This document shows, piece after piece, positions 3,403-60,314 of a stretch of DNA of 64,000 bases (its first letter is position 1; each line of letters begins with the position of its first letter). Below the pieces are notes generated by a model, which was not told the origin of the DNA, made no database searches, and saw only the letters and a program-made list of their open reading frames with translations. The position numbers were made by a program, and so were the translations under genes. Origin of the DNA: a bacterium (GTDB lineage: Bacteria > Patescibacteriota > Patescibacteriia > UBA10025); contig JAKAGM010000001.1 of NCBI GenBank assembly GCA_021815445.1, positions 3,447 to 67,446 of the forward strand, given 5' to 3'.

Positions 3403-3533
3403 TATTCGATCACGAGTATGGCCACTCCGACGCTGAACACAAAATCTGGACACCCGTGCCGCCGTTGCGCGCTTTTGCATATTCATTTATACTGTTAGAT
3501 ATCAACATCTGTGCGTATTAAAGCATTCAGACT

Positions 3534-4784
3534 ATGCCACGAGACGAAATAATTACCGGTCTTGATATCGGTTCGATGACTATCCGGGTAGCAATGGGCC
3601 AGCTCGATCCCACGGGGCAGGGCATCCAGATTCTTGGGGCCTCAGAGGCCCAGGCTGACGGCCTGAGCAAAGGAGCAGTTACGAGCATCGAGGATGCGGT
3701 GTCATCTGTCTCAAAAGCTCTAGAGGATGTCGAGCGCATGACGGGCATCCCCGTCGAGAATGCGTTTGTCGGCATTGGCGGAACGCACATTTCAGCGCAG
3801 GAAAGTCATGGCGTTGTTGCGGTTTCCAAAGCCGACGGTGAGATCAAGGAGGAAGATGTTGAGCGTGTCGTCGAAGCGGCGCAAACCGTGGCGACTCCGC
3901 CGAATTACGAGATACTGCACGTGCTCCCGCGAAGCTTCATCGTCGATAACCAAAAGGGGATCAAGGATCCCATCGGTATGACCGGCATCCGACTTGAAGT
4001 CGATGCGCAGATCATTCAGGGGCTCTCGTCACAGATCAAAAATCTTACCAAGTGTGTTTACCGTACCGGCGTCGATATTAACGATGTAGTCGTCGGCGTA
4101 CTCGCGGCGTCGGAATCTGTACTGACCAAACGCCAAAAGGAGCTCGGTGTGGCGCTCGTAAACCTTGGGGGCTCCACGACGAGCGTTTTGGTTTTTGAGG
4201 AGGGCGACGTCATCCACGCGGCGATCCTGCCTGTCGGCGCGTCACATATCACCAATGACATTGCTATAGGACTGCGTACGTCCATAGATGTCGCTGAAAA
4301 AATAAAGCTCGAATACGGTACGGCAATTCCCGGAGATGTAGCCAAACGCGACGAGATCCGTCTCGAGGATATTAGCCAGCAGGAGACTGGTGTCGTCGAG
4401 CGCAAACACGTTGCCGAAATCATCGAGGCACGCTGTGAAGAGATTTTTAAGCTTATTGAAAAAGAACTTGTGAAGGTCGACAGGTCGGGTCTGCTGCCTG
4501 CAGGGGTGGTCCTCACGGGCGGCGGTGCGAAACTTCCCGGGCTTGTCGACATAGCCAAACGCGAATTCAGGCTCCCGGCTGTCGTCGGATTCCCCCAGAA
4601 CATCGCCCACACTCCTGTCGATAAGATCAATGACCCCGCGTGGTCGACTGCCGTAGGGCTTGTCGTCTGGGGAGCTTCGCTCTCCGCCAAGCACAGCGGA
4701 ACCGGATCGTCTCTTCCCCGGTTTTCTTCCGTTGCAGATGTCACCGGAAAGATGCGGAAGTGGTTCAAATCCCTTATCCCCTAA
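3534..4784 (+). CDS. ftsA: cell division protein FtsA
   Basis: actin-like ATPase fold motifs (GLDIGS...GGGA), 416 aa, immediately upstream of ftsZ. Confidence 0.85.
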
Positions 4785-4801
4785 AAATCCATACTGCACG
4801 T

Positions 4802-5977
4802 ATGAAAAGTCGTCTTAACGGAGGAACGAATGTGGAAATAAAACCTGACATAGAAACATTTGCCAAAATCAAGGTGATTGGCGTTGGCGGATCCGGTGGC
4901 GCGGCTATCGACCGCATGATTTCAGAAAAAATTCGCGGCGTTGATTTTATCGCCGTTAATACTGATGCGCAGGCGCTCCATCATTCCCGGGCCCCCCATC
5001 GCATCCACATTGGCAAGATGACGACAAAAGGCCTCGGTGCTGGTATGGATCCTGAGGTTGGGGCGAAGGCGGCCGAAGAGAGCAGGGACGAGATCCATGA
5101 GGCGTTAAAGGGCGCTGACATGGTATTTATCACCTGCGGTTTGGGCGGGGGCACGGGCACGGGCGCCGCTCCGGTGATTTCAGATATCGCCAAAGAGGTC
5201 GGCGCGCTGACAGTCGCCGTTGTCACCAAACCGTTCGCTTTCGAAGGCGCCCAGCGCAAGTCGATTGCGGAATCAGGCTATCATGAACTCTCAGACCGCG
5301 TGGACACGATCATCATGATACCCAACGACAGAATCCTCCAGATTGTGGACAAAAAGACATCCTTGCTCGAGGCGTTCGGGACAGTTGACGATGTGCTTCG
5401 CCAGGGTGTGCAGGGGATTTCCGAGCTTATCACTATCCCCGGCCTCATAAACGTTGACTTTGCAGATGTGAAATCAATCATGGAAGGGGCAGGTTCAGCG
5501 CTCATGGGCATCGGCCGCGGGACAGGGGAGAACAGGGCAGTGGAAGCTGCGAAGGCGGCAATTGACAGCCCGTTGCTCGAGCTCTCTATCGACGGCGCAA
5601 AAGGCATTCTCTTTACCGTTACCGGCGGGCCTAACTTGGGCATGTATGAGGTCAACGAAGCGGCCCGCGTTATTACCGGATCCGCAGATCCGAACGCGCG
5701 AGTTATCTTTGGCACGATTATCGACGAGGATATGAAGGATGAAATCAAGATAACAGTCATTGCGGCCGGTTTTGGCGAACGAAGTAAGACGAAACGCATC
5801 ACCCCTCAAGTATCAATGCAGGAACGAAGGCCGGAAATGCCCGCCCCGCAACCCCGACCGGTCCAGTCAACTCCTCGCGTCATGCCTCCTGTCCGGCCTA
5901 AGACTCCAGAGCAGCAAAAGACGGCCCAGGAAGAAGAGCTTGAGATCCCCGCGTTCATACGGAAGAAAATGATGTAA
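4802..5977 (+). CDS. ftsZ: cell division GTPase FtsZ
   Basis: GGGTGTG tubulin signature and [18 protein letters not shown]-terminus; ATG at 4802 is in frame with the longer ORF from 4640; basic/Pro-rich C-terminal tail. Confidence 0.9.
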
Positions 5978-6004
5978 AACCGGAACATTCGACAGCTTTC
6001 ACAC

Positions 6005-6033
6005 ATGCACTCCCAACCCGAGAGTGCATTTTG
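6005..6033 (+). terminator. rho-independent terminator after ftsZ
   Basis: hairpin ATGCACTC-(9 nt)-GAGTGCAT followed by TTTTGG. Confidence 0.6.
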
Positions 6034-6472
6034 GTAAGCCGACTTTTCCACAAGCAAAGGTGGCGCGATGCGTTTGCAGAGGATCTATCGACAGAGTATC
6101 CTTATTTTATGTAAATATTTTACAGAATATTTTTTTTACTTTACGATGTACATTGCTACCTCATCATCCGATATGCATGGGAGGTTGTCGGCACTCTTTG
6201 CTGTCTGCCTGGATGCTCGGACGACGGCGAAGTGCCTTGGCGGTTCATCTGTTTTCTTCATGTTTCTTGATATAGACCGCCGGAACTCTCCAGGCATCCG
6301 CCCGATAATCAGGAGGCAGGTTTTTATCTCTGCAAAATGCCTCTACAGGGTCCTTGAGCTCCCGAAATGCAGTTATCCACAGACTTTTTGTCTTCAGTAA
6401 AGCAGGAATCTTTTTTCCGACACTTATTTCTTCCAAGAGGTTAGCGCAAAAAGTTTAATAGACCCCAAAATG

Positions 6473-6500
6473 TTGACAAATCTATATATAGTAGTATAAT
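6473..6500 (+). promoter_or_regulatory. sigma70-like promoter of nrdR-nrdJ
   Basis: TTGACA (6473-6478), 16-nt spacer, TATAAT (6495-6500), about 40 nt upstream of the nrdR ATG. Confidence 0.5.
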
Positions 6501-6526
6501 GACAGTTAGGGTACTAGATATTGTAC
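6479..6526. promoter_or_regulatory. two NrdR-box-like palindromes (candidate NrdR operator)
   Basis: aatCTATATATAGtag (6479-6494) and gtaCTAGATATTGtac (6511-6526) resemble the NrdR box consensus acaCwAtATaTwGtgt; centres are 32 bp apart, about 3 helical turns. Confidence 0.5.
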
Positions 6527-6538
6527 TAAAATCCGATT

Positions 6539-6988
6539 ATGAATTGCTTATCCTGCGGCAAAGAAGACACGAAGGTCACTGATTCACGGGTAGTAAACGA
6601 TGGAATGGCGATTCGGAGACGTCGAGAATGCCAAAAATGCGGTTTCCGGTTCTCTACCTACGAAGAAGTTGAAATTTTAAATCTTTCAGTGGTCAAAAGG
6701 GACGGGGTCCATGAGCCCTATTCACGCGAGAAGGTTGAGCGCGGACTCAAAAAAGCTCTCGAGAAACGGCCGATAACGCAAGAGAAGTTCCGCATGCTCA
6801 TTGCAAACATTGAGCGGGATATTCAGACCGAGGCGAAATCCGACGAGGTGACCAGCAGCCAGATCGGCGAGATTATCATGCGCCATCTCAAAAAAGCCGA
6901 TAAGGTCGCATATATCAGGTTCGCGTCAGTGTATAAATCTTTTGAGGATATCGATTCTTTTAAACAAGAAATTAAAAAAATCACTTAA
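6539..6988 (+). CDS. nrdR: transcriptional repressor NrdR
   Basis: N-terminal zinc ribbon CLSCGKEDTKVTDSR...CQKCGFRF followed by an ATP-cone; 149 aa. Confidence 0.9.
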   Translation: MNCLSCGKEDTKVTDSRVVNDGMAIRRRRECQKCGFRFSTYEEVEILNLSVVKRDGVHEPYSREKVERGLKKALEKRPITQEKFRMLIANIERDIQTEAKSDEVTSSQIGEIIMRHLKKADKVAYIRFASVYKSFEDIDSFKQEIKKIT

Positions 6989-6999
6989 AAACCATCTTT

Positions 7000-9777
7000 A
7001 TGTCCTCTTCCGACGTATCTCCTACCCAAACAAAGGTTAAGGAGTCGGTGAGTGTGCTGACTCAAGAGCAGACTGCGGGGGCCGCGCACGCACGCGAAGG
7101 ACTCCATATGGATTATTTTTTTTCCCGCAAGGGTGTGCACCCCTATGATGAGATCGAATGGGAACTGCGCGAAGCCAAGATTGTCGGAAGCGACGGGAAA
7201 GTCGTTTTTGAGCAAAAAGATGTTGAATTGCCTAAGACGTGGTCGCAGCTTGCGACGAATGTTGTCGTATCCAAATATTTTCGCGGCAGGCTCGGGAGTC
7301 CCGAGCGCGAAACAAGCGTCAAGCAGATGGTATCGAGGGTAGCCGATACGATTGCCGCATGGGGGAAAGCAGGAGGCTATTTCGCCAGCGACGAGGACGC
7401 GGAGACTTTCCGCATGGAGCTTACGCATCTTCTCGTCTATCAAAAAGCGGCGTTTAACAGTCCCGTGTGGTTTAATGTCGGGGTCAAGGAACATCCGCAA
7501 TGTTCGGCCTGCTTTATCCTCTCCGTCCAGGATTCCATGGAGTCTATTTTAGATTGGATCAGGAAAGAAGGACTCATCTTTAAGGGCGGGTCCGGATCAG
7601 GCGTCAACCTCTCGACGCTCCGGTCATCGCGGGAACAGCTGTCCGGCGGCGGGTACGCGTCCGGTCCGGTCTCGTTCATGCGCGGCGCCGATGCTTCGGC
7701 CGGTTCCATAAAATCCGGCGGCACGACGCGCAGGGCGGCCAAGATGGTTATCCTCAATGTCGACCACCCCGATATCATTGAATTCATACATTGCAAAGAG
7801 GTCGAGGAAAAGAAGGCGTGGGCGCTCGGCGAACAGGGATACGATATGTCGATGAACGGTGAGGCGTGGAAGTCCATCCAATTCCAGAATGCCAACAATT
7901 CAGTGCGCGCGACGGATGAATTCATGCAGGCTGTTGAGAATGACGGTCTCTTTTCTACCCGCTCGGTAGGCAGCCACAACCCCGTAGACCAATACCGTGC
8001 CCGCGACATCCTGCGGCAGATATCCGAGGCGACCTGGGTATGCGGCGATCCCGGTTTGCAGTACGACACTACGATCAATGCGTGGCACACCTGTCCCAAT
8101 ACGGGCAGGATTAACGCCTCGAATCCGTGTTCAGAGTACATGCACCTCGATAATTCAGCGTGCAACCTCTCCTCAATCAACCTGATGAAATTCCTCAAGG
8201 ACGATGATTCTTTCGATGTCGGGGGGTACAAACGGGCGATAGATATCATGATTCTCGCGCAGGAAATACTCGTAGGATTTTCGAGCTATCCGACGGAGGA
8301 AATCTCGCGGAATGCCCATGATTACCGGGAGCTCGGTCTGGGATACGCGAACCTCGGCGCTCTTCTAATGTCATGGGGCCTGCCGTATGATTCAGACGCG
8401 GGCCGCGCGGTGTCTGCGGCTCTCACGGCGTTTCTTACCGGTGAAGCGTATGCGGAATCGGCGCGAGTAGCCGCTGTCGTCGGGCCTTTTGCCGGATACG
8501 AGAAAAATCGCGAGCCCATGCTCAATGTTATCGCAAAACACAAATTTCACCTGGATGATATCAACCGGCACTACGTCCCGGCTGAACTTTTTGCCGCCGC
8601 TGAAACCTCATGGACAGACGCACTGGAGCTTGGCAAGCACAACGGATTCAGAAACTCACAGACGACTGTCCTTGCCCCCACCGGAACGATCAGCTTCCTG
8701 ATGGATTGTGATACGACAGGCATCGAGCCCGACATAGCCCTGGTCAAATACAAGAATCTTGTCGGCGGCGGCGTCATGAAGATTGTCAACCACTCGGTGC
8801 CTCGCGCCCTGCACAGGCTCGGGTACAGCCAGGACCAGGTCGACGCTATCATAAGGTACGTCGACGACAAGGGGACTATCGAAGGAGCTCCGGAACTGAA
8901 AGAGGAACATCTCTCAGTTTTCGACTGCGCGTTCAAACCGGCGAATGGCGTCCGCTTCATCCACTACATGGGCCATATCAGGATGATGGGAGCCGCGCAA
9001 CCGTTTATCTCCGGGGCCATCTCAAAGACGGTAAACCTGCCGAAAGAAGCGACTGTCGATGATATTTCCACTGCGTATACCGAAGGGTGGAAGCAAGGCC
9101 TCAAAGCGCTCGCCATTTATCGCGACGGTTCCAAGCGCACGCAACCGCTCTCGACGGCCGATGATGATACGACCCAAAAGACGCGTGAGACAAAGCAAAA
9201 GTCATTGCGCAGACGGCTGCCGGACGAGCGCAAATCCATCACCCACAAATTCTCCGTCGGCGGCCATGAGGGGTACATCACCGCCGGGCTCTATGACGAC
9301 GGTACGCCCGGAGAAGTGTTCATTACCATGGCGAAAGAAGGCTCGACAATATCGGGGCTCATGGATGCCTTTGCTACCTCAATCTCCATCGGCCTCCAGT
9401 ACGGCGTCCCGCTCAAGACGATGGTCAATAAGTTTTCCCACATGAGGTTCGAGCCCTCAGGATTTACCGGTAACGCTGATATTCCGATAGCAAAGTCGAT
9501 TGTCGATTACATCTTCCGCTGGATGGGCAGGAAATTCCTCCCCCAGGAGGAGCAGGCGGAGGCGACAAAAGAAGCTGTCAAACCGATTGTCGAGAATGGC
9601 AATCATGACAGTGTAAAAGCAGAGACAGCGCCATCTGTTCCGTCCGCGTTCCAGCAAAAGATAACGTTCACCAACCAGGAGGACGCGCCTGCATGCCAGA
9701 CCTGCGGATCAATCATGGTCCGCAACGCGGCCTGCTACAAATGCACCAACTGCGGCGCTACAAGCGGGTGCAGCTAA
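7000..9777 (+). CDS. nrdJ: ribonucleoside-diphosphate/triphosphate reductase, class II (adenosylcobalamin-dependent, NrdJ-like)
   Basis: 925 aa; ASGPVSFMRGADAS...NVDHPDIIEFI and the NPCSEY active-site region match monomeric class II RNRs; C-terminal CxxC...CxxC; no NrdB partner in the window; nrdR lies 12 bp upstream. Confidence 0.85.
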   Translation: MSSSDVSPTQTKVKESVSVLTQEQTAGAAHAREGLHMDYFFSRKGVHPYDEIEWELREAKIVGSDGKVVFEQKDVELPKTWSQLATNVVVSKYFRGRLGSPERETSVKQMVSRVADTIAAWGKAGGYFASDEDAETFRMELTHLLVYQKAAFNSPVWFNVGVKEHPQCSACFILSVQDSMESILDWIRKEGLIFKGGSGSGVNLSTLRSSREQLSGGGYASGPVSFMRGADASAGSIKSGGTTRRAAKMVILNVDHPDIIEFIHCKEVEEKKAWALGEQGYDMSMNGEAWKSIQFQNANNSVRATDEFMQAVENDGLFSTRSVGSHNPVDQYRARDILRQISEATWVCGDPGLQYDTTINAWHTCPNTGRINASNPCSEYMHLDNSACNLSSINLMKFLKDDDSFDVGGYKRAIDIMILAQEILVGFSSYPTEEISRNAHDYRELGLGYANLGALLMSWGLPYDSDAGRAVSAALTAFLTGEAYAESARVAAVVGPFAGYEKNREPMLNVIAKHKFHLDDINRHYVPAELFAAAETSWTDALELGKHNGFRNSQTTVLAPTGTISFLMDCDTTGIEPDIALVKYKNLVGGGVMKIVNHSVPRALHRLGYSQDQVDAIIRYVDDKGTIEGAPELKEEHLSVFDCAFKPANGVRFIHYMGHIRMMGAAQPFISGAISKTVNLPKEATVDDISTAYTEGWKQGLKALAIYRDGSKRTQPLSTADDDTTQKTRETKQKSLRRRLPDERKSITHKFSVGGHEGYITAGLYDDGTPGEVFITMAKEGSTISGLMDAFATSISIGLQYGVPLKTMVNKFSHMRFEPSGFTGNADIPIAKSIVDYIFRWMGRKFLPQEEQAEATKEAVKPIVENGNHDSVKAETAPSVPSAFQQKITFTNQEDAPACQTCGSIMVRNAACYKCTNCGATSGCS

Positions 9778-10818: not shown

Positions 10819-11250
10819 ATGACAGTTGTCGATAAAAAGAAACGCGTTCTCGATTTCATCAAACGCCAACATGTAGCCGTGTTGGCGACGGTTGACGGCG
10901 TGCGGCGCGTACCCGAGTGCGCTGTCGTTGAATTCTCAGAGACGGATAACCTTGAGATTATTTTTGACACATTTTCCTCGTACCGCAAGTACGGAAATTT
11001 GCAGACGAACCAGCGCGTTGCGCTCGTGATCGGCTGCGAGGACGACGTCACTGTCCAGTACGAGGGCGTCGCCCGCGAGGTGACCGGTGACGAACTGAAA
11101 CGGTGCCAGAAAATTCATACGGCCAAGCTTCCCGGTGCGAAAAAGTTCACGACGATGGAAGACATCAGATTTTTTCGTATTACCCCGGTGTGGATCCGCT
11201 ACGTGAATGTGTCGCTCGATCCGTGGGAAGTCTTCGAGCTTTCATTATGA
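10819..11250 (+). CDS. pyridoxamine 5'-phosphate oxidase-like FMN-binding split-barrel protein
   Basis: 143 aa with the HVAVLATVDG...VALVIG pattern of the PPOX/general-stress protein 26 family. Confidence 0.6.
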   Translation: MTVVDKKKRVLDFIKRQHVAVLATVDGVRRVPECAVVEFSETDNLEIIFDTFSSYRKYGNLQTNQRVALVIGCEDDVTVQYEGVAREVTGDELKRCQKIHTAKLPGAKKFTTMEDIRFFRITPVWIRYVNVSLDPWEVFELSL

Positions 11251-11822
11251 AGAGTACTCCCAAAAAGAAGTTTAAAGTCCTGAATCGCGGACTGACCATT
11301 GCCTATATCGGAAACGGGAAAGGGAAGACAACCGCGGCTGTCGGCGCGGCAGTCAGAGCGCGCGGCTGCGGGATGCGAGTGCTTTTTTTGCAGTTCTATA
11401 AAAGTCCCGAATGGCCCTCGGGAGAACGGCAGGCTCTCGTGAAGCTGGGCGTCAAGGTTCACGTTGTCGGCGAGGGGTTTGTCGGCATCCTCGGAGACAG
11501 AAAAAAACTTGCCGTACACAAAAAGGCCGCGGAGCGGGCGCTGAGAGAGAGCCGTAGAGCCCTTGTTTCAGGCGCATACGACCTTATTATCCTCGACGAA
11601 GCTATTTCGTGCCTCGAGCAGAAGCTGTTTACGCCTGCCCGGCTGGCGACACTCCTGAAGCTCAAACAAAAATCCACAAAAGCATCTCATGTCCACTTGA
11701 TTTTGACCGGCCACAAAAGATTTCCGCAGATACTCAAGCTCTGCGACCTGGTCACTGAGATGAAGATGGTGAAGCACCCATATTACCAAGGGTTTTTGGC
11801 GGTAAGGGGAGTGGATTATTAA
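11247..11822 (+). CDS. cobA: cob(I)alamin/corrinoid adenosyltransferase, CobA/CobO/BtuR type
   Basis: P-loop GNGKGKTTAAVGAAVRARGCGMRVLFLQFYK typical of the CobA family; ATG at 11247 overlaps the upstream stop by 4 bp (ATGA). Confidence 0.75.
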   Translation: MKSTPKKKFKVLNRGLTIAYIGNGKGKTTAAVGAAVRARGCGMRVLFLQFYKSPEWPSGERQALVKLGVKVHVVGEGFVGILGDRKKLAVHKKAAERALRESRRALVSGAYDLIILDEAISCLEQKLFTPARLATLLKLKQKSTKASHVHLILTGHKRFPQILKLCDLVTEMKMVKHPYYQGFLAVRGVDY

Positions 11823-11954
11823 CCACAAAGTACTATGGACACCCCAACACCTCAGCCCACCCCACAATCCTCATCAAGCACAATGATGCGAGTCATTTTG
11901 GTAATCATTCTCATTATCGTCGGCGCGGGCGCTTACTTCTGGTGGCAGAAAGGG
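11815..11954. repeat. 140-bp direct repeat copy 1 (promoter-proximal region and first 40 codons of the 11835 gene)
   Basis: identical base-for-base to 13371..13510. Confidence 0.9.
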
Positions 11955-13304
11955 CAAGCAAATACGAACAGTGCGAACCTCGTCCTCAATGCCATGAACC
12001 AGAGTACCAATGCGCCCTCCAACATCAATTCGGTTGCCAACGCGAACACCACCTTGAATACCAATATCGCCGTAAATGCCAATACTCCCGCTAATCTCAA
12101 CACGGCAGTAAACACCAATACTGCGGTAAACTCAAATACCAATACCGCAGTGGATACGAGCGGGTGGCTGGCCGAGACGGCGCGATGCAGTCATGAGCCC
12201 GTATCTCAGCAAAAGGAAAGTATCTTAACTGATAACTCTGACTGGCAAGTCATACGGGTATACAGGGGTGAGCTAAAATTCTCGTACGAAGTACCTTCTA
12301 GTGCAACTTTTAATACCGGTCTGGACAGATATACGAAAACTGGGTCAGAAGAGAGGGAAGTAATATCCGAAGTAAATCTAGAAGGTATGGCTATTGATGT
12401 TAGATGGTATAAAAACAACTCTTCGTTTGAGCTGTGGACTAGGGATCATGAGAATGAGATTTATACTTCCTATATTGCCAGCTCACGTGGCGCGGCAATA
12501 TCGGAACCAGAGCAGATAGTTGTTGATGGACGCAAAACAAAAACATATGAAGTTACGAGTCCTTTTGGGTTTAAGGTAATGCTGGTTTTTGTTGAGGATG
12601 GGGATAAAATATATCAAATAGAGGTTCGGGGGCCAGCGGAGAATATGGAAAACTTCAAAGGGGATATCAATAAAGTATTAATGAGTTTTCACTTTGAAAT
12701 CCCTGATCCAGGTGAATTGATATTTACCTATCGCGAAATTGATCTGTCCTTCAGGTATCCTTCATCCGTCGGCACTCCTCAGCTTGCATGGGGTACCCCA
12801 GTGAATAATAAAAATTGGGAGAAAGCTATGATTGAAGTAGGTCAGAAAGGCCAAAGTGCTTTTTCAATAACACGGGAAGCGGATTATTATAGCTCACATG
12901 AAAATGAGTGGCTGTATACTTTTTACGGGAAAGCGGTCGATGCTAAGCAGCCTCTTTCAGATTTAATCCTTTTTATAAGTAGAGATTTCAAAAATATTCT
13001 CGGTATTTCAAATAAATGTGGTTTCGTTGAGATAGTTGAACTAGACCAATATAATACTCAAACAGCGTTAATTTATCGAGCATTTGTTCCTCATCCTGAT
13101 TATAAGGTTGTATTAGCAACTTTCGTGATAAGTACATCTTTTCCTAATCTTGAAAATAGTAATATTGATCCTAATCTTGTGATAGCCAATGATATGCTCA
13201 ATGACATTAAAATGGGTACATTTCAACAAGATATTATTCAGAATTTAGACACATTTCGTGCGATCTTACCAACAATAAAAACTGCAACACCCCTACCCCG
13301 CTGA
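11835..13304 (+). CDS. membrane-anchored protein: conserved N-terminal anchor, N/T-rich linker, AT-rich C-terminal globular domain
   Basis: MDTPTPQPTPQSSSSTMMRVILVIILIIVGAGAYFWWQKG anchor identical to the 13391 gene; C-terminal ~1.1 kb is markedly AT-rich compared with its surroundings. Confidence 0.6.
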   Translation: MDTPTPQPTPQSSSSTMMRVILVIILIIVGAGAYFWWQKGQANTNSANLVLNAMNQSTNAPSNINSVANANTTLNTNIAVNANTPANLNTAVNTNTAVNSNTNTAVDTSGWLAETARCSHEPVSQQKESILTDNSDWQVIRVYRGELKFSYEVPSSATFNTGLDRYTKTGSEEREVISEVNLEGMAIDVRWYKNNSSFELWTRDHENEIYTSYIASSRGAAISEPEQIVVDGRKTKTYEVTSPFGFKVMLVFVEDGDKIYQIEVRGPAENMENFKGDINKVLMSFHFEIPDPGELIFTYREIDLSFRYPSSVGTPQLAWGTPVNNKNWEKAMIEVGQKGQSAFSITREADYYSSHENEWLYTFYGKAVDAKQPLSDLILFISRDFKNILGISNKCGFVEIVELDQYNTQTALIYRAFVPHPDYKVVLATFVISTSFPNLENSNIDPNLVIANDMLNDIKMGTFQQDIIQNLDTFRAILPTIKTATPLPR

Positions 13305-13370
13305 CTTCGATGGCGACGGCCTTTCTTAATACTTGCTGCTAGGTTACAATGGATATGTAATCTGACAGTA

Positions 13371-13510
13371 ATTATTAACCACAAAGTACTATGGACACCC
13401 CAACACCTCAGCCCACCCCACAATCCTCATCAAGCACAATGATGCGAGTCATTTTGGTAATCATTCTCATTATCGTCGGCGCGGGCGCTTACTTCTGGTG
13501 GCAGAAAGGG
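13371..13510. repeat. 140-bp direct repeat copy 2
   Basis: identical to 11815..11954. Confidence 0.9.
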
Positions 13511-14113
13511 GATACAAAAATAAACACCGCAAACATTGCCATTAATACTACCAATAGGAACACAAATACCGTCTCCAATGCCAATTCGGCTGTGAATACC
13601 AATGTTGCCTCAAATGTCAACACTGCCGCTAATCTCAACACAGCGGTGAATGTGAATGCGGGGGCAAACTTAAACACCAACGCGGCAGTGGATACGAGCG
13701 GGTGGAAGACGTATGAGAATAGCACGTATGGGTACAACATCAAATATCCAACAGACTGGAAGGTAGTTGAGGCCACGGGGATGCTTACAGAATTCTCGCC
13801 CACGAGCAAGGATTATACCGTCGAGGGCTCGATTGCCTACCCCGTGGGGATAACAGGCTATACAGGCGCTGCATCTGATTTCTTAAGTCAGGTGTCGTCA
13901 GATAAGAAGAGTTCAGTAACCATTAATAATCAGGCTGCCACAAAGGTCATAGGATATTCGAATTCAATCTCTTATGTCTTTTCTAATCAGGCGCGAGTGC
14001 AATATCTGGTAATTGGTCCAAATAGCGCGCTGTTAAATAACGTAGATGTTTCAGATCGATCAACAATAGAATCGATGTTTGAGGCAATGCTTCGGACGTT
14101 CACAATTCAATAG
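13391..14113 (+). CDS. membrane-anchored protein paralog with identical N-terminus and a different C-terminal domain
   Basis: first 40 aa identical to the 11835 gene, then an N-rich linker and an unrelated 130-aa C-terminal domain. Confidence 0.6.
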   Translation: MDTPTPQPTPQSSSSTMMRVILVIILIIVGAGAYFWWQKGDTKINTANIAINTTNRNTNTVSNANSAVNTNVASNVNTAANLNTAVNVNAGANLNTNAAVDTSGWKTYENSTYGYNIKYPTDWKVVEATGMLTEFSPTSKDYTVEGSIAYPVGITGYTGAASDFLSQVSSDKKSSVTINNQAATKVIGYSNSISYVFSNQARVQYLVIGPNSALLNNVDVSDRSTIESMFEAMLRTFTIQ

Positions 14114-14197: not shown

Positions 14198-16189
14198 ATG
14201 AGAACTGTAATGGTCGCTCTTGTTGCGCTGGTGCTGTCAGCTACCAGCGCTGTAGCAGTCGATCTAACGGAAACTGGATTTTACTACCCAACTGGCAGCC
14301 ACACATTAGGCAGCTATGCCGGATGGTTAGCAGTTCCGCCAGCTTACTTTGACGGCTACTACCATATCGGCAAAGATATTGACACCGGTGAAGTTGCGCC
14401 TGTGTACGCAATTTCGAATGGCATCGTGATCTACATCAGTTCTGGTGGATGGGGGACGAACAACAAGGGGGTGTTTGTGAGGCACACCCTTGTAGATGGG
14501 TCTCAGTTCGTTGCGCTTTACGGACACGTGAGAACAAGCAAGGTGGTGAATGACGCGGTACAAGCTGGTGTTCAATTTGCGACGATTGGGCCGTGGGATC
14601 CGACACATTTGCATTTTGGCATTCATCCTGGAGGGACTATACCCTCCGATCCATACGGTATGCTACCCTTGCCGGTGACATCGCCGTACAATGGCTGGCA
14701 GGATCCAATCGATTGGATTGCAACGCACAGTCCCGCTGGTGCTTACTCCTGCTCCTTCGTCTCCAAGTCTATCTCGCCTGCCGGTCCGTATGTTCCAGGG
14801 CAGACAGTTACCTGCCAGGTGAAGTTCAAGAACGAGGGTACGGCAACGTGGAGTAAGACAGGCGGCCAGTCGAATTACGTCGAATTGGGATCGTGCGACG
14901 GAAACGGAGGCATCGGCTACAGTTTCTTCAACTATCCCTGCACACTCCCCAATGACGGCCAAGTTCCATCATGGCTGAATTGCAAAGTGCCATGCACCTT
15001 CGTAGAATCCAATGTGCCGCATGGCAGTAATGCGACCTTCAACTTCACGGGTAAGATTAGGGACACGTTACCCAGTACATACAGCGTGTATTTCGGACCT
15101 GTCTGGAATAGCGCAATCATGTCTGGCTGGGTCGGGACGCATTACGCCGTCCAAGTCACCATCCCTGAGTCGTTCTCTACCATGACCCTTACCCCCATCG
15201 CAGGTGATTGGAACGGAGATGGAGTCTCCGAGGTCGGGGTCTATGCCGACGAGACGCAAACCTTCTATCTGGACACCAACAATGACGGGTATACGGAGTT
15301 GGAGCTTCATTACAGCTCAGCCGTAGACAAACCTTTGGCCGGCAACTGGGCTGGCGGCGGGTACTACGGCGTTGGTTTTTACCGTCCCGCCTATCGCACC
15401 TTCTGGCTGGATTATGACAACAACGGCCAGATGGACAATGGCATTGTGTTTGGTGACGGTGGAGACACGCCTTTGGCAGGTGACTGGCTTGGGAACGGCT
15501 ATTCCCGAATTGGCCTATACCGCCCTTCAACCAGGACATTCTGGCTGGACTACGACAACAACGGCACTGCAGACTTTAGCCGTGTCTTTGGAGATGCCAC
15601 GGACATTCCTATCACGGGAGACTGGGACTGTGACTTGGACTGGAACATCGGCGTTTACCGCCCGTCTACCAGGACGTTCTGGTTAGACTACAATAATGAC
15701 GGCTCGGCCGATTTCTCCCGAACCTTCGGAGACGCCGGTGATCTTCCCGTTGTCGGAGACTGGACCGGCAACTGCGGCACCAACATCGGCGTATTCCGCC
15801 CCTCCACCCAGGAATTCTGGCTCGATTACAACAACGACGGAACGGCTGACCGAGGGTTCCAGATCCAACGGATTATTCCCGGTTCGCCTAAGATCACGGC
15901 ACATGGAGAAGACAATACTCTGCCTCGGACATTCTCCCTGTCCCAGAATTACCCGAACCCGTTCAACCCGGGCACGACGATCAGGTACACCTTGCCGAGG
16001 AGTACCCACGTCGTTCTTTCCATCTACAATGTTCTGGGGCAGAAGCTGGAGACTCTGATTGATGAGCACCAGTTCGCCGGAGAGTATATCGCTTTCTGGG
16101 ACGGATCGCGCTTCGCATCGGGCATGTACTTCTACCGCCTCGTCACCGATCAGGCGGTGGAGACAAAAAAGATGATTCTTTTGAAGTAA
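14198..16189 (+). CDS. secreted multidomain protein: M23/LytM-like peptidase domain, FG-GAP-like repeats and a T9SS-type C-terminal sorting domain
   Basis: signal peptide; HIGKDID...HLHFGIHP (M23-like); four or more ~40-aa repeats (GDWxGxG...YRPSTRTFWLDYNNDGTADF); C-terminal LSQNYPNPFNPGTTIRYTLP...GMYFYRL...KKMILLK matches the Por secretion-system CTD pattern. Confidence 0.75.
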   Translation: MRTVMVALVALVLSATSAVAVDLTETGFYYPTGSHTLGSYAGWLAVPPAYFDGYYHIGKDIDTGEVAPVYAISNGIVIYISSGGWGTNNKGVFVRHTLVDGSQFVALYGHVRTSKVVNDAVQAGVQFATIGPWDPTHLHFGIHPGGTIPSDPYGMLPLPVTSPYNGWQDPIDWIATHSPAGAYSCSFVSKSISPAGPYVPGQTVTCQVKFKNEGTATWSKTGGQSNYVELGSCDGNGGIGYSFFNYPCTLPNDGQVPSWLNCKVPCTFVESNVPHGSNATFNFTGKIRDTLPSTYSVYFGPVWNSAIMSGWVGTHYAVQVTIPESFSTMTLTPIAGDWNGDGVSEVGVYADETQTFYLDTNNDGYTELELHYSSAVDKPLAGNWAGGGYYGVGFYRPAYRTFWLDYDNNGQMDNGIVFGDGGDTPLAGDWLGNGYSRIGLYRPSTRTFWLDYDNNGTADFSRVFGDATDIPITGDWDCDLDWNIGVYRPSTRTFWLDYNNDGSADFSRTFGDAGDLPVVGDWTGNCGTNIGVFRPSTQEFWLDYNNDGTADRGFQIQRIIPGSPKITAHGEDNTLPRTFSLSQNYPNPFNPGTTIRYTLPRSTHVVLSIYNVLGQKLETLIDEHQFAGEYIAFWDGSRFASGMYFYRLVTDQAVETKKMILLK

Positions 16190-16583: not shown

Positions 16584-17054
16584 ATGGATAAACCTCCAAT
16601 GGTAGTAGTCAAACAAAAAGCAAAAACGAATTATGCGGCACTCGGAATCATCGCCGTCGTGGCGGCCGGCGTATTATTTTTCGGGAATGCCTATAACAAA
16701 GGAGTAACCAATGACGCCCAGAAAGCGGGCGCAGGCGTTGTTGCCGGAGTAGAGTCAGTCCAGCAGGAAGCGACGCTCACCATCAACAACGGCAAAACCA
16801 CCCGCAGTATGGTCATGACCCTCAATCCGGGCGTCTCTGCGCTTGATCTCGTCATCCGGGCGGGAATGAGGGAAAACTTTACAGTCGAAACGAAGAAATA
16901 TGACTTCGGGACCATCGTCGAATCTATCGACGGCGTGCGCGGCGGCGACCAGAAGAAATACTGGCTGTACTATGTGAACGGCAAACAGGCGACAGTCGGC
17001 GCGGATGCGTACAAAGTGCAATCCGGGGATACCATAGACTTCAGATTCGAATAA
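16584..17054 (+). CDS. DUF4430-family protein (transcobalamin/intrinsic-factor C-terminal-domain-like, putative B12-binding)
   Basis: N-terminal TM anchor; C-terminal YWLYYVNGKQATVGADAYKVQSGDTIDFRF matches the DUF4430 signature (W.Y.VNG...G...Y.LKDGD.I.W); directly downstream of the B12 riboswitch. Confidence 0.7.
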   Translation: MDKPPMVVVKQKAKTNYAALGIIAVVAAGVLFFGNAYNKGVTNDAQKAGAGVVAGVESVQQEATLTINNGKTTRSMVMTLNPGVSALDLVIRAGMRENFTVETKKYDFGTIVESIDGVRGGDQKKYWLYYVNGKQATVGADAYKVQSGDTIDFRFE

Positions 17055-17059
17055 TTTCC

Positions 17060-17584
17060 ATGAAAAAAAAGTACTCCATTGCCGTAGCTCTCGCATTGAT
17101 TCTGGTCGGGATGGCCGTCCGTCTCCTTCCGCATCCGGCCAATTTTACCCCCCTTGCCGCAATAGCGCTTTTTTCCGGCGTGTATCTTCCCCGCAGGTTT
17201 GCTCTCGTTGTGCCTCTCGCCGTGATGGTGGCTTCTGATGCGTTGATTGGCTTTCACAACCTCGTACTCTTTACCTGGGGATCCTTCGCGCTGATCGGAG
17301 TGATCGGCTGGTGGGTACAAAAGCATAAGCACGTCACTACGGTCATCGGCGGGGCGCTTGCCGGGTCTCTGCTCTTTTACCTCGTGACTAACTGGGCCGT
17401 GATGCAATTCGGGACTATGTACCCGCACACCATCTCGGGATTACTTGGCTCGTATGCTGCGGGGATACCTTTTTTCCGCAACATGCTTCTCGGAGACCTT
17501 TTTTACACGTCGACCTTTTTCGGGGCCTATGAATTGGCTGAGCGGCTGGGCGTGCGGATAGGAGCCCGCGCAGAAATTCGGTAA
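17060..17584 (+). CDS. polytopic membrane protein, ECF-transporter S-component-like (putative corrinoid uptake component)
   Basis: 174 aa, 5-6 TM helices, N-terminal LPHPANFTPLAAIALFSG motif reminiscent of ECF S components; 6 bp downstream of the DUF4430 gene in the same riboswitch-controlled unit. Confidence 0.5.
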   Translation: MKKKYSIAVALALILVGMAVRLLPHPANFTPLAAIALFSGVYLPRRFALVVPLAVMVASDALIGFHNLVLFTWGSFALIGVIGWWVQKHKHVTTVIGGALAGSLLFYLVTNWAVMQFGTMYPHTISGLLGSYAAGIPFFRNMLLGDLFYTSTFFGAYELAERLGVRIGARAEIR

Positions 17585-17690: not shown

Positions 17691-18620
17691 ATGGCTAATT
17701 ATCAAAACTATCGCAGGTACCGCAACCAAGGAGGGGACGGACGCCAGCGGGTGGGAAAGGCGGTACTTCTTTTGGCGGCCTTTCTTTTTATTTACCTGAT
17801 CGCGCGGGCAATCTTTGGCAGCGATAAAAACACCTCGATACTCAATACGCTGAATGAACCGCTTGCCAATGTCGGGTCTGCAAACACGGCAAATAACATA
17901 AATGGCATCGTCAATGGCGCTATCAACGGTAATAACAACAGCAATACCAACACAAACGTCAATGCAAGCCCTTCGGCTTCATCATCGACGTTTTCGGTTG
18001 CAAGCAATTGCGCCGCAGTAAAGTCGCGCGGGAGCGAAACGAAAAAAGCAGTAGCCCTCACCTTTAATGTCGGTACGATCAAAGAGGGAAGCATCGACGC
18101 TGTTTTGACCGGACTGAAAAACGGATCGGTGCCGGCGGCTTTCTTTGCGACAGGTGATGTCGCGTCGGGCAACGCGGCGCTTGTCAAGAAAATAGCCGAT
18201 GCGAATTTCCCGGTCTATAATTTCGGCAACAGCCTCGTGAAGTTTACCGACCTGCAAGAGGCGGGCATTACCGAACAGTTGACGAAAGCCGAAGCAAGCA
18301 TTTCAGCTGTTACCGGCGTGAGCACCAAACCGTTTTTCCGCCCCCCGTACAATGCCGTCGACGATACCGTGCTTGCCACTGTCAAGAAAGACGGGTACTG
18401 TCCCGTGGTCTCGACTTTTGATGCTCTCGACTGGAGCGCTGACAGCACGGCGGCTTCCTCGAAGGAGCGCGTGCTTTCAAAGGCCTCGAACGGGTCTATC
18501 ATCCTGATGCAAGCGTCGAACAGCATTACAGCCGAGATTCTTCCCGATGTGATCAGCGGCCTGAAGGCAAAAGGGTTTACTTTTGTAAGTCTTGATGCGC
18601 TTTTAGCGAGCTCATCATAA
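17691..18620 (+). CDS. polysaccharide deacetylase (NodB-homology domain) with N-terminal TM anchor and N-rich linker
   Basis: ALTFNVGT...PFFRPPYNAVDD...DALDWS pattern of CE4 deacetylases. Confidence 0.7.
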   Translation: MANYQNYRRYRNQGGDGRQRVGKAVLLLAAFLFIYLIARAIFGSDKNTSILNTLNEPLANVGSANTANNINGIVNGAINGNNNSNTNTNVNASPSASSSTFSVASNCAAVKSRGSETKKAVALTFNVGTIKEGSIDAVLTGLKNGSVPAAFFATGDVASGNAALVKKIADANFPVYNFGNSLVKFTDLQEAGITEQLTKAEASISAVTGVSTKPFFRPPYNAVDDTVLATVKKDGYCPVVSTFDALDWSADSTAASSKERVLSKASNGSIILMQASNSITAEILPDVISGLKAKGFTFVSLDALLASSS

Positions 18621-29253: not shown

Positions 29254-29784
29254 ATGTCGCGGCCCTTTCACTTACACGTAGAAGAAGGATATTATTTTCT
29301 TACTGCTCGGACTCAGCAAGGATACCCGTTTTTACATAGCCAAAATGCCAAAAGAATTCTCTTAGGATCAATTGAACAATCGGTTCAACAATGCACGATT
29401 AAACTTTTTGCGTGGGTAATAATGGATAATCATTACCACATTCTTATCGGTACCGATAGGGGGCAAAGAATACAACAGCTTATGCAGCTGATTCATGGAA
29501 GAAGCTCAAGACGTCTACGAAAGTTTAATCAAACGGAGGGCAGACTGATCAGTCTGCCCTCCACGGGGTGGAAAGTCTGGCAAAATTACTGGGACATATG
29601 TATCCGTGATGAGGCAGATTTCTTTACCCACCTGAACTATATCCACCACAACCCGGTCAAGCACGGATTAGTGAGAAGGATGGAGGACTACCCATTTTCA
29701 AGCTATAGACAATACGTTCAAACAGAGGGTTCTCAGTGGCTCGACAGCTCCTTTGAGACTTATCCCGTCATTGACTTTACATAG
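29254..29784 (+). mobile_element. IS200/IS605-family Y1 (HuH) transposase or REP-associated tyrosine transposase-like gene, solitary
   Basis: HuH motif MDNHYHILIG and C-terminal catalytic-Tyr region YIHHNPVKHGLV...DYPFSSYRQY; only 10 bp from the upstream stop, so no IS ends are recognisable. Confidence 0.6.
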
Positions 29785-38629: not shown

Positions 38630-39280
38630 ATGAAAGCAAAAATACCGCTCACAAACACCACGGTTGCGGTCGTATGGTCGTTTGTTGCTGTCTTTTACGC
38701 CATAATCTTCACTACATCAAAGTATTTATTCTGGCAGAAACTTGGTGAAACAAGCATTTTGTTTGCTTTTATCATTATACTTTTACCATACTTTGTCGTA
38801 CTCTTTTTTATTGTTCGTTTTGTGAGAGAAGGGGTAGAAATAACGCGCAGAATTCGGGCAGACCTAGGGGAAGCGGCAGAATACGCCTCAGGTGACACGA
38901 TTACTTCACGGATGTATTTTATTATTCCTGCGCTCCAGGGCAAGTATGCAATCCCTGAGGAAAACGTGCTGACGTATTATCAAACCCATATCCAGGATAT
39001 CAAAACGCAAGCCGCAGGGTTTATGCATTTTGCTATTCTTCTGACCGTTTCAGGTGTGGCGATATCTCTTCGGGTAAATTCAGTTTCAGGAACTCTATTC
39101 GCGATTCTTATCGCTGTCATTGCTCTAGGTATGTGGGGGTGGGCCTTTGATTATCGCAGTATCGAGGCATTGCGTACAAGGCGATTCACGGGATTTTTGA
39201 GAAAGAATCCTAAACTCTTTGCTGTTGGGTTTCTGAGTTTAGTATGCGCGATGGTTTTACTGGCTGTAGTCGGGTATTAG
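38630..39280 (+). CDS. hypothetical polytopic membrane protein (AT-rich gene)
   Basis: 216 aa, 5 or more TM helices; GC clearly lower than the flanks. Confidence 0.5.
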   Translation: MKAKIPLTNTTVAVVWSFVAVFYAIIFTTSKYLFWQKLGETSILFAFIIILLPYFVVLFFIVRFVREGVEITRRIRADLGEAAEYASGDTITSRMYFIIPALQGKYAIPEENVLTYYQTHIQDIKTQAAGFMHFAILLTVSGVAISLRVNSVSGTLFAILIAVIALGMWGWAFDYRSIEALRTRRFTGFLRKNPKLFAVGFLSLVCAMVLLAVVGY

Positions 39281-41409: not shown

Positions 41410-41431
41410 CAAACCGGACCCAAGGGGATTT
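41410..41431. repeat. 22-bp direct repeat of the tRNA-Asp 3' end
   Basis: CAAACCGGACCCAAGGGGATTT is identical to 41568-41589 (3' acceptor/T-stem of tRNA-Asp). Confidence 0.6.
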
Positions 41432-41572
41432 GGTTCCGGGGTCTCGCTGTTCCTTCGGAACATCGCTCGACCCGTCTCGTCCCGCGCGAAGCAAAACTAT
41501 TTGCTTCGCTTGTTGACTCAACCCCCTGATCTTCTCGGGGATCTGTGCAAGTTAGGCGCATTGTTTCCAAAC

Positions 41573-41647
41573 CGGACCCAAGGGGATTTGAACCCCTGGT
41601 CTTCTCCGTGACAGGGAGACGTGTTAACCGGGCTACACCATGGGTCC
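41573..41647 (-). tRNA. tRNA-Asp (anticodon GUC)
   Basis: GGACCCA-UG-GUGU-AGCCCGGUUA-ACAC-G-UCUCC-CUGUCAC-GGAGA-AGACC-AGGGG-UUCAAAU-CCCCU-UGGGUCC-G; canonical cloverleaf, 75 nt, CCA not encoded. Confidence 0.9.
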
Positions 41648-41735
41648 GGTTTGGAAACAATATGTTAATGTGACGTTCACTACTTTACCAAGCGAAATGG
41701 GAAATGTACAGGGATAGCACAAAGAACTGTCACTG

Positions 41736-43231: not shown

Positions 43232-43631
43232 TGGTGGAGATGAGGGGAATTGCACCCCTGTCCAATATACGAACCAGTCAACGTCTCCAAGCTATCCTAT
43301 TTTAGCGTGGTCGATGGCAGAAGTCAAAATAGGAAAAAGGTCCTGCCATCCGAGTCTCGTGGTACGGCCGGGAGCAAGAGACACGCTCGTCGGTCGTCCT
43401 CCGTTTGTGACACCTCCGACCTTCTCAGGAGGAATCAGAAGGGGAGATGGTTATCGGTTTTTACGCGACAACAGGCGCAAAGGAAGGCGCAAATACGCTT
43501 GCAAGTGCGGTCTTCGCTTTGCTTACAAATGATTTGGCATTTGTCTAATTGGAGCCAGTTTAACGTCATGAACTGCCGTGGACGGCTTGCAGTTGAGATG
43601 GCAATGTACACTGTCGATTATAAGCATCCCC
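43232..43631 (-). ncRNA. ssrA: tmRNA (SsrA)
   Basis: 5' GGGGAUGCUUAUAAUCGACAG (acceptor G3-U wobble, UCGAC box) and 3' GGACAGGGGUGCAAUUCCCCUCAUCUCCACCA (T-arm plus acceptor plus CCA); 34 nt downstream of smpB; candidate tag frame ending ...APSFAPVVA-UAA (stop at 43463-43461). Confidence 0.8.
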
Positions 43632-59558: not shown

Positions 59559-60314
59559 ATGGCAACTTTTTCTACTGAAGGCGTCGTGCTCTCCCATTCG
59601 TCGCCTACCGATTCAGGAAGGCTAGTGACGCTGTATACCTGGGGGCACGGCAAGCTCCAAGCGCGCCTCCGTGGAAGCCATAAGACACTCAGTAAGCTCG
59701 CAGGGAACATGGAGCCGTTTTGCGACGGGCTTTTTTTCCTTGCCCACGGGCCGGGCGGGTACACTGTTATCGGCGTCGATGCCGCCTCGCCGCGGAGCGC
59801 GCTCAAGCGAAAGCTCCAGACGACGGCCGCTGCAAGCATCGTTGCGGAAGCTGTCATACGCCTTACGCATGACCAGCAGCCTGACCGCAGGCTTTTTGCC
59901 GTCGTACAGTCCGTCTTTTCTTTTCTTGACCAGAAAGCGCTTCGGACAGGATCTCTCTTGCTCCTCATCACATGGTTTTTCCTCCGTTTCTTTTCTTTGC
60001 AGGGAAGCGGACTCGAGTTTTCACAATGCGTGCGCTGCAGGAAAAAGCTCACCCCCGGGACGCTCAGCATTAGTTTCTCGCTTGGCGGCGCTCTCTGCGG
60101 AGAATGCGGGAGACTGACTTCCGATGCGCAAGCTTTGCGGGCTGATACGCTCAAGCTTTTTCGCCTCCTCAACGAGGCTCCGCTCGCTGACGTCCTTCGT
60201 GTAAAGACTTCGACAGCCAGCCTTGTCCAGGCGCTCAACGTCGTTTCACGGCTGTATCGCTATCACCTCGAGGATAGCTCGCCGGCGCAACAATTCTTTC
60301 AGGCGCTCTCCTGA
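59559..60314 (+). CDS. recO: DNA repair protein RecO
   Basis: OB-fold N-terminus plus CVRCRKK...CGEC zinc-finger. Confidence 0.8.
   Translation: MATFSTEGVVLSHSSPTDSGRLVTLYTWGHGKLQARLRGSHKTLSKLAGNMEPFCDGLFFLAHGPGGYTVIGVDAASPRSALKRKLQTTAAASIVAEAVIRLTHDQQPDRRLFAVVQSVFSFLDQKALRTGSLLLLITWFFLRFFSLQGSGLEFSQCVRCRKKLTPGTLSISFSLGGALCGECGRLTSDAQALRADTLKLFRLLNEAPLADVLRVKTSTASLVQALNVVSRLYRYHLEDSSPAQQFFQALS

Follow-up and report, generated by a model that had tools for sequence, protein, structure and literature searches.

An Identical 140-Nucleotide 5′ Segment in Two Tandem Patescibacteria Genes, Probably a Recent Gene Conversion Tract

Layout of the Locus

The sequence considered here, referred to as the window, is a 64,000-nucleotide stretch of a Patescibacteriota genome (lineage UBA10025; assembly GCA_021815445.1, contig JAKAGM010000001.1, positions 3,447 to 67,446 of the forward strand). 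It contains two adjacent genes, designated A and B, that begin with the same 140 nucleotides (nt), and the origin of this shared segment (the “handle”) is the subject of this report. Gene A (11835–13304) encodes 489 amino acids (aa) arranged as an N-terminal tail, a transmembrane (TM) helix, an Asn/Thr linker, a VDTSGW junction and two globular modules. Gene B (13391–14113) encodes 240 aa with the same tail, TM helix, linker and junction, followed by a single PsbP-like module. Coordinates are those of the window, and features are on the plus strand unless otherwise stated.

The handle occupies positions 11815–11954 and 13371–13510. An earlier note on this DNA, made from the sequence alone, had reported these two segments as identical, and this was borne out. 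They match base for base over exactly 140 nt, extension by a single nucleotide fails at either end, and the flanks of both copies are clearly dissimilar sequence with no near-identity or single-nucleotide polymorphisms, giving the repeat sharp edges. Each copy consists of 20 nt 5′ of the ATG plus codons 1–40 (MDTPTPQPTPQSSSSTMMRVILVIILIIVGAGAYFWWQKG). In copy 1, the 20 nt comprise the last 8 nt of cobO (ATTATTAA, including the stop codon) and a 12-nt spacer; cobO itself, which encodes ATP:corrinoid adenosyltransferase, lies at 11247–11822. Copy 2 is preceded by a unique 66-nt spacer (13305–13370) that runs from the gene A stop codon to the handle, and no terminator-like site was found in this spacer. 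Of the sigma-70-like sequences in the region, the best match (TTGAGA-17-TATAAT, 11 of 12 positions) is at 13027–13055, in the AT-rich end of A and ∼340 nt before B. This candidate promoter could drive B and the adjacent M23 peptidase gene independently of A, or could reflect mere AT richness.

Both copies of the handle in the window head complete genes in the same orientation. The handle is the only exact direct repeat of at least 24 nt in the 64 kb, and its 71-nt core, which occurs twice, was found in 0 of 100 shuffled sequences. Note that this copy count covers the 64-kb window. Word-indexed protein searches with A or B did not return the other protein despite the common handle, and such searches are therefore unusable for excluding further copies.

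The repeat had also been described as spanning the ribosome-binding region, but this is not evident. There is no Shine-Dalgarno motif in the shared 20 nt before the start of gene A or gene B, whereas AGAGGTG precedes the neighboring M23 gene. Public gene calls start A and B at M17 (positions 11883 and 13439), yielding proteins of 473 aa (P0004) and 224 aa (P0001), respectively. An M(D/E)xPxxQP N-terminus matching M1 (positions 11835 and 13391) is kept in at least six homologues, and M1 is favored as the start codon because of this conserved tail. Residues 1–110 of A and B contain no Cys, hence no lipobox.

The genes do not diverge completely after the handle, as had been supposed. In A, the handle is followed by a low-complexity Asn/Thr-rich linker (11955–12146) with a native-like GC content at third codon positions (GC3) of 0.61, and the Asn/Thr-rich linker of B (13511–13684) is homologous to it and alignable, if diverged (about 57% aa identity). 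Both linkers lead into an (A)VDTSGW junction (12147–12167 in A, 13685–13705 in B) whose 21 nt, encoding AVDTSGW, are identical in the two genes and constitute the second-longest exact repeat of the region. The DTSGW motif is invariant across the family to which A and B belong, and the bodies of the two proteins differ only beyond it. By gapped blastn, the 5′ regions of A and B are 80% identical over 353 nt, handle included. A TM helix with an Asn/Thr-rich linker is also encoded at 1364–2494 (376 aa, with a weak TSP3_bac match) and at 17691–18620 (a 309-aa polysaccharide deacetylase), so this type of linker is general to the exported proteins of this genome rather than specific to A and B.

Relative Age of the Handle

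Comparisons of A with B were made using degenerate codons that specify the identical residue in both genes. All 35 such codons in the handle are the same, versus 23 of 37 in the linker plus junction, where 14 have changed. At the rate seen in the linker, the result for the handle would have a probability of (23/37)^35, or about 6 × 10^−8. The handle must therefore postdate the remainder of the common 5′ region by a wide margin, and a recombination breakpoint is needed at codon 40/41.

Related genomes exhibit a similar pattern. The N-terminal 45 aa are 91% to 100% identical between A and B and 79% identical between P0002 and P0006, which are encoded at another locus (L002), versus 33% to 44% in all cross-genome pairs. 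Linkers and C-terminal domains are no more alike within genomes than between them. The tandem genes at L002 have a TM-YLADQDNEN segment in common that is 85% identical over 87 nt, with differences that are largely synonymous. At L107, two genes lie on either side of an M23 gene and are 83.6% identical across a block of 165 nt (∼82 nt upstream plus 26 codons); they also have a 65-nt block at the junction in common, while their remaining protein sequence is 30% identical. At L126, three genes around an M23 gene carry one anchor (73% to 79% nt identity) in a block that starts ∼35 nt upstream. Such a contrast, with anchors similar inside a genome and dissimilar across genomes, is the hallmark of concerted evolution, and the window pair is the most recent and extreme case of it in the family.

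We read the identical 140 nt as a probable recent gene conversion tract between the 5′ ends of tandem paralogs, and assign this interpretation of the sequence a probability of roughly 0.6. The suggestion of recent gene conversion or recombination made in the earlier note is thus supported, both by the codon comparison and by the recurrence elsewhere of the within- versus between-genome pattern. Non-reciprocal homologous recombination would have taken place between the 5′ ends of A and B, presumably by a RecA-type mechanism. RecO is encoded at 59559–60314, and recA is not among the genes of the window. The left edge of the tract would be the end of paralogous homology, taken here to be the junction of the old duplication, which lies 5 nt ahead of the stop codon of cobO. 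The right edge would be the start of the diverged, quasi-repetitive linker, which could no longer support strand exchange. The distal parts encoding the modules would not recombine and would diverge rapidly, and in A they may have been replaced by foreign DNA. Because the cobO-derived ATTATTAA also stands before B, the sequence suggests that copying proceeded from A to B.

Several points weigh against gene conversion. There is no homology beyond the left edge of the tract, which is awkward for classical two-ended conversion and would allow a one-sided or duplication-type event instead. Anchor identity reaches 100% in one genome only; values in the others range from 73% to 85%, which might in part result from purifying selection acting on an old duplicate. 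Further copies of the handle may be present in the remaining ∼813 kb of the genome. Finally, the repeat length of 140 equals k−1 for a MEGAHIT assembly at k141.

The last of these points concerns an artifact, in which a de Bruijn graph assembler would have produced either the duplicated 140 nt or the order cobO-handle-A-spacer-handle-B. MEGAHIT uses (k+1)-mer edges. A matching public contig (ERZ27237554 k141_1660939), identical to the window wherever compared, has a MEGAHIT-style name that indicates k141. By the de Bruijn graph principle (PMC9215042), 140 nt is the longest exact repeat that a k141 graph can thread. Such an artifact is nevertheless improbable. The unrelated flanks at both copies argue that the repeat is not the truncation of a longer one, and the 66-nt spacer and both junctions require supporting k-mers of their own. 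Seven long contigs from separate assemblies (0.2–1 Mb, among them contigs of 877,264 and 881,187 bp; ENA and NCBI) carry the A and B proteins with the same neighbors, and independently assembled related genomes have the same tandem layout with shared anchors.

Identity might also be maintained by selection on the nucleotide sequence itself, if the 140 nt acted as a regulatory RNA or translation-initiation element. Consistent with this, the shared block begins 5′ of the ATG in the window (20 nt), at L126 (∼35 nt) and at L107 (∼82 nt), and the starts of A and B both lack a Shine-Dalgarno motif. Against it, the predicted RNA fold of the handle is unstable (minimum free energy −23.1 kcal/mol versus a shuffle mean of −28.2; z = +1.45), the handle matches no Rfam family, and related genomes tolerate 15% to 27% nt change in the block, largely synonymous at L002. 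We regard this explanation as scarcely credible.

The architecture had been likened in the earlier note to a cassette-exchange or antigenic-variation system. A programmed system of phase or antigenic variation that recombines at the handle, like the vsp/vpma or vsa loci of Mycoplasma, would account for a conserved 5′ untranslated stretch and N-terminal export sequence placed before differing extracellular bodies, which is the vsp/vpma layout (PMC3365025), and direct repeats of 140 nt would permit deletion or amplification of a 1,556-nt unit. Recombination between direct repeats, however, deletes or amplifies A and cannot switch expression. Only two copies are present, both full length with start codons and in the same orientation, and neither protein has a lipobox. 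No silent cassette or third copy of the handle was found in the window, and no significant inverted repeats flank A and B. The gene tables, which cover about 1,900–62,750 of the window, contain no Xer/tyrosine or serine recombinase and no reverse transcriptase, and their sole transposase-like gene (Y1_Tnp) is ∼16 kb away. A degenerate pattern for GAGAYFWWQKG had 0 matches in GTDB representative genomes, JGI metagenomes and IMG/VR; note that the source genome is absent from all three. The likeness to a cassette system is therefore not supported, and programmed variation is very improbable here. Two other recombination systems were considered and rejected: a diversity-generating retroelement, because the repeats are identical, lie at the 5′ end and show no adenine-specific differences, and the gene tables hold no reverse transcriptase; and shufflon/invertase or integron-type systems, because the gene tables hold no recombinase and inverted repeats are lacking.

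Composition of the Distal Parts and Module Capture

Values of GC3 were compared with a baseline of 0.59 ± 0.065 for open reading frames (ORFs) of the window. Change-point analysis places a break at codon 151 of gene A (nt 12288), where GC3 drops from 0.60 to 0.30, a change reached by 0 of 500 shuffles. No other ORF segment in the window has a GC3 as low as that of the AT-rich distal part of A (12288–13304, 340 codons). The break in gene B is at codon 153 (nt 13850), with a GC3 of 0.61 before it and 0.36 after it (reached by 4 of 500 shuffles), leaving an AT-rich distal part at 13850–14113. The M23 gene is also compositionally mosaic, in the opposite sense (0.51 to 0.68). The earlier observation that the downstream domains have much lower GC thus holds for the distal parts of A and B, but the drop begins ∼110 codons past the end of the handle rather than at it. 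Two other low-GC ORFs were noted in the window: a Y1_Tnp (IS200-like) transposase gene at 29254–29784 (GC 0.435, GC3 0.46) and an ORF at 38630–39280 (216 aa; GC 0.432, GC3 0.42) that matches no Pfam family.

These data bear on a different origin for the repeat, in which A was formed recently by joining foreign DNA carrying two distal modules to a new copy of the handle and linker already in the genome, so that the identity would reflect a young fusion. The 340 distal codons of A have a GC3 of 0.30, versus 0.60 for the first 151 codons and 0.59 for the genome, and the sole relatives of these modules are modules 27% to 34% identical in multi-module proteins of other lineages. The 21-nt exact DTSGW junction is a plausible crossover site, and homologues carry these modules in shuffled order and in repeats, always after the same junction motif. 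We nonetheless judge this origin unlikely, if worth keeping in view. The linker between handle and junction has diverged by ∼35% at the nt level, with 14 of 37 codons synonymously changed, so handle and linker cannot be of the same age. The GC3 break lies ∼110 codons past the handle, and B has a similar break and M23 an opposite one, which argues that compositional mosaicism is not specific to A. The tandem pair at L002 also has shared anchors, and both of its modules are ordinary.

The narrower idea that foreign C-terminal domains have been captured onto a fixed anchor is partly supported, for A. Since the relatives are distant and from other lineages, a foreign origin for the AT-rich distal part of A is plausible from its sequence. 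However, the position of the break and the similar composition of B do not favor capture at the handle, and AT-biased drift in parts too divergent to recombine is an alternative that accounts for the same data.

A broader scheme can be proposed in which the handle and the nucleotide-conserved DTSGW junction serve Patescibacteria as portable homology sites through which extracellular PsbP-like modules, some of them foreign, would be exchanged while the export and anchor unit stays the same. The swapped proteins would be partners of M23 (in specificity, regulation or immunity) at the interface with the host cell wall. This scheme is speculative and distinctly unlikely; if it were true, module turnover would track host range.

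Protein Family and Predicted Fold

Homologues of B (P0002, P0003 and P0006–P0012) have a common layout, with an M(D/E)xPxxQP tail, one hydrophobic helix, an N/T-rich linker, the sequence (V/I)DTSGWKTYEN..YG(Y/F)..KYP..W, and a module of ∼130 residues. A and B are tandem paralogs of this Patescibacteria family, whose members are probably extracellular. The best explanation for the TM helix is that it acts as a signal anchor or signal peptide, with the short tail in the cytoplasm.

Assignments to Pfam PsbP_2 (PF18933) were made using its gathering threshold of 27 bits. Several family members pass this threshold, namely P0003 (31), P0007 (29.5), P0009 (28.8), P0013 (54.8) and genes at L126 (47.3 and 32.1). 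The module of B scores below it (13 bits on PsbP_2, 15.9 on PsbP), as does module 1 of A (13.6 bits on PsbP). Structure prediction had been proposed for both C-terminal domains and was informative for one of them. The AlphaFold2 model of B has a predicted local distance difference test (pLDDT) score of 65–84 over most of the module core, with loops 128–149 and 211–221 below 50. Foldseek searches with this model returned CyanoP and PsbP as the top PDB matches (E = 3 × 10^−6 to 6 × 10^−4; template modeling score, target, 0.43–0.52), followed by Tsi3, DcrB and BT_1490 (E range overall, 3 × 10^−6 to 5 × 10^−3). A PsbP/Mog1-type alpha-beta-alpha sandwich is thus predicted for B only; the corresponding model of A has a pLDDT of 36.

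The body of A is organized differently. Module 1 (about aa 125–290) is the part with the weak PsbP match, and module 2 (about aa 288–489) matches no Pfam family. Module 2 and the C-termini of P0013–P0018 clearly belong to one family; with the B family, module 2 has in common only a 29-residue entry motif. Profile searches with module 2 found no sequence relative in the PDB, and it had no match among viral contigs. Alignment of the C-terminal part of A to the B family using hhalign also gave nothing (probability 8%). For the last 385 residues of A there are no close relatives, and exhaustive HMMER searching returned seven distant ones with 27% to 34% identity. These are multi-module proteins of other lineages with the same anchor and linker, in which modules repeat, each entered by DTSDW-TYEN, and some of the modules are PsbP_2. 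The bodies of A and B thus represent distinct modules within a single class of modular proteins.

The M23 Peptidase and Gene Neighborhood

The next gene after B encodes a secreted M23 peptidase (14198–16189). This protein carries a signal peptide, FG-GAP-like repeats and a Por_Secre_tail domain, and its HxxxD and HxH motifs are intact. In the window, and likewise at L002, L005, L006/7, L089, L092, L094, L096, L107 and L126, M23 is directly preceded by a family gene in the same orientation, giving about 10 independent loci at which a B-type gene is paired with M23. More distant PsbP_2 relatives, among loci L097–L135, are mostly without an M23 partner. A functional link between B and the peptidase may be proposed, for example as a regulator or immunity protein; the predicted fold of B also matches Tsi3.

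Variations on this arrangement were noted. At L126 (positions 3462–9768 of that locus), four or five PsbP-like anchored genes surround one M23 gene, and three have the same anchor. At L092, M23 fragments flank the family gene on both sides. At L005 (3050–5946), genes for a serine recombinase and a phage-type integrase are directly upstream of the B-like gene.

The Por_Secre_tail of the window peptidase is a C-terminal sorting domain of the type IX secretion system (T9SS) type, scoring 31 bits. The last ∼100 residues are 40% to 57% identical to sorting domains in Ignavibacteria, Bacteroidota, Kryptoniota and Zixibacteria (loci L008–L087), and the M23 relatives at L002, L005 and L006 also have a Por_Secre_tail. 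A profile search of genome contigs with the M23 alignment gave only T9SS C-terminal-domain matches, in Ignavibacteria, Bacteroidota and Zixibacteria. We know of no outer membrane or T9SS in this Patescibacteria lineage, which makes the sorting domain odd.

The surroundings of the pair (6539–9777, 11247–11822 and 16584–17584) are related to cobalamin. Upstream of A are genes for NrdR, a B12-dependent class II ribonucleotide reductase, an HD hydrolase, a PNPOx-like protein and CobO, and on the downstream side of M23 are genes for a transcobalamin-like DUF4430 protein and DUF6580. Rfam searches at gathering scores gave no cobalamin riboswitch. Since the L002 pair follows mur genes instead, the B12-related neighbors are not part of the A/B unit.

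Elsewhere in the window, a 23-nt exact direct repeat (41410–41432 and 41568–41590, copies 158 nt apart) overlaps the 3′ end of a tRNA-Asp gene (41572–41648, minus strand) and may be the remnant of an integration site. A transfer-messenger RNA gene (43232–43631, minus strand) has a long predicted tag, AKSFVSKAKTALASVFAPSFAPVVA, whose last residues are VVA instead of the usual LAA.

Comparison with Known Systems

The locus exposes a recurrent and uncharacterized Patescibacteria gene pair, in which the gene for a membrane-anchored PsbP-like protein precedes that for a secreted M23 peptidase. Anchors are homogenized within genomes, while the outer modules turn over rapidly and are odd in composition. 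These proteins are candidates for possible roles in host contact or control of a cell-wall hydrolase in organisms thought to live attached to other cells.

The predicted fold of the B module resembles that of PsbP-like/Mog1 proteins (PF18933 and PF01789; CyanoP, 2LNJ/2XB3; Tsi3, 3WA5; DcrB, 6E8A), and the N-terminal W-x-T-Y...Y-G-F...Y-P..W hairpin aligns with the beginning of the Pfam models. Unlike PsbP proteins, A and B have no photosystem context and are partnered with an M23 peptidase, and their scores of 13–16 bits are below threshold.

In Mycoplasma bovis vsp and M. agalactiae vpma, a conserved upstream region (70 bp in vsp) and a 31-aa signal peptide precede divergent bodies, and the genes adjoin a Xer recombinase (PMC3365025; PMC2268961). 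A and B likewise have a conserved noncoding stretch and an N-terminal export sequence before divergent bodies, in a small host genome, but they lack the lipobox Cys, the adjacent recombinase, the inverted sites and the multi-gene cluster. In the upstream homology box genes of Borrelia burgdorferi (ospE/ospF/elp), the same upstream region and leader are found on differing mature proteins, an arrangement attributed to recombination (Marconi 1996 and Akins 1999, as cited in PMC10016077). Those genes encode lipoproteins on multicopy cp32 prophage plasmids, whereas A and B are chromosomal and tandem and have a TM anchor.

The lpl cluster of Staphylococcus aureus provides another comparison. There, tandem paralogs recombine homologously at a highly conserved nucleotide block, and the variable regions on either side behave as separate units (Tsuru & Kobayashi 2008, PMC2568036). 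Both cases involve tandem paralogs for extracellular proteins with a conserved block in or at the edge of the ORF. They differ in that the lpl block is central and belongs to lipoproteins encoded in many copies on a genomic island, whereas the block in A and B is at the 5′ end (20 nt plus 40 codons), the proteins have no lipobox, and two copies are seen. By analogy, A and B would work like lpl-type homologous recombination rather than like the site-specific switching systems. The phenomenon itself is known: it is ordinary evolution of a tandem family, a new instance in a little-studied family, and requires no new mechanism.

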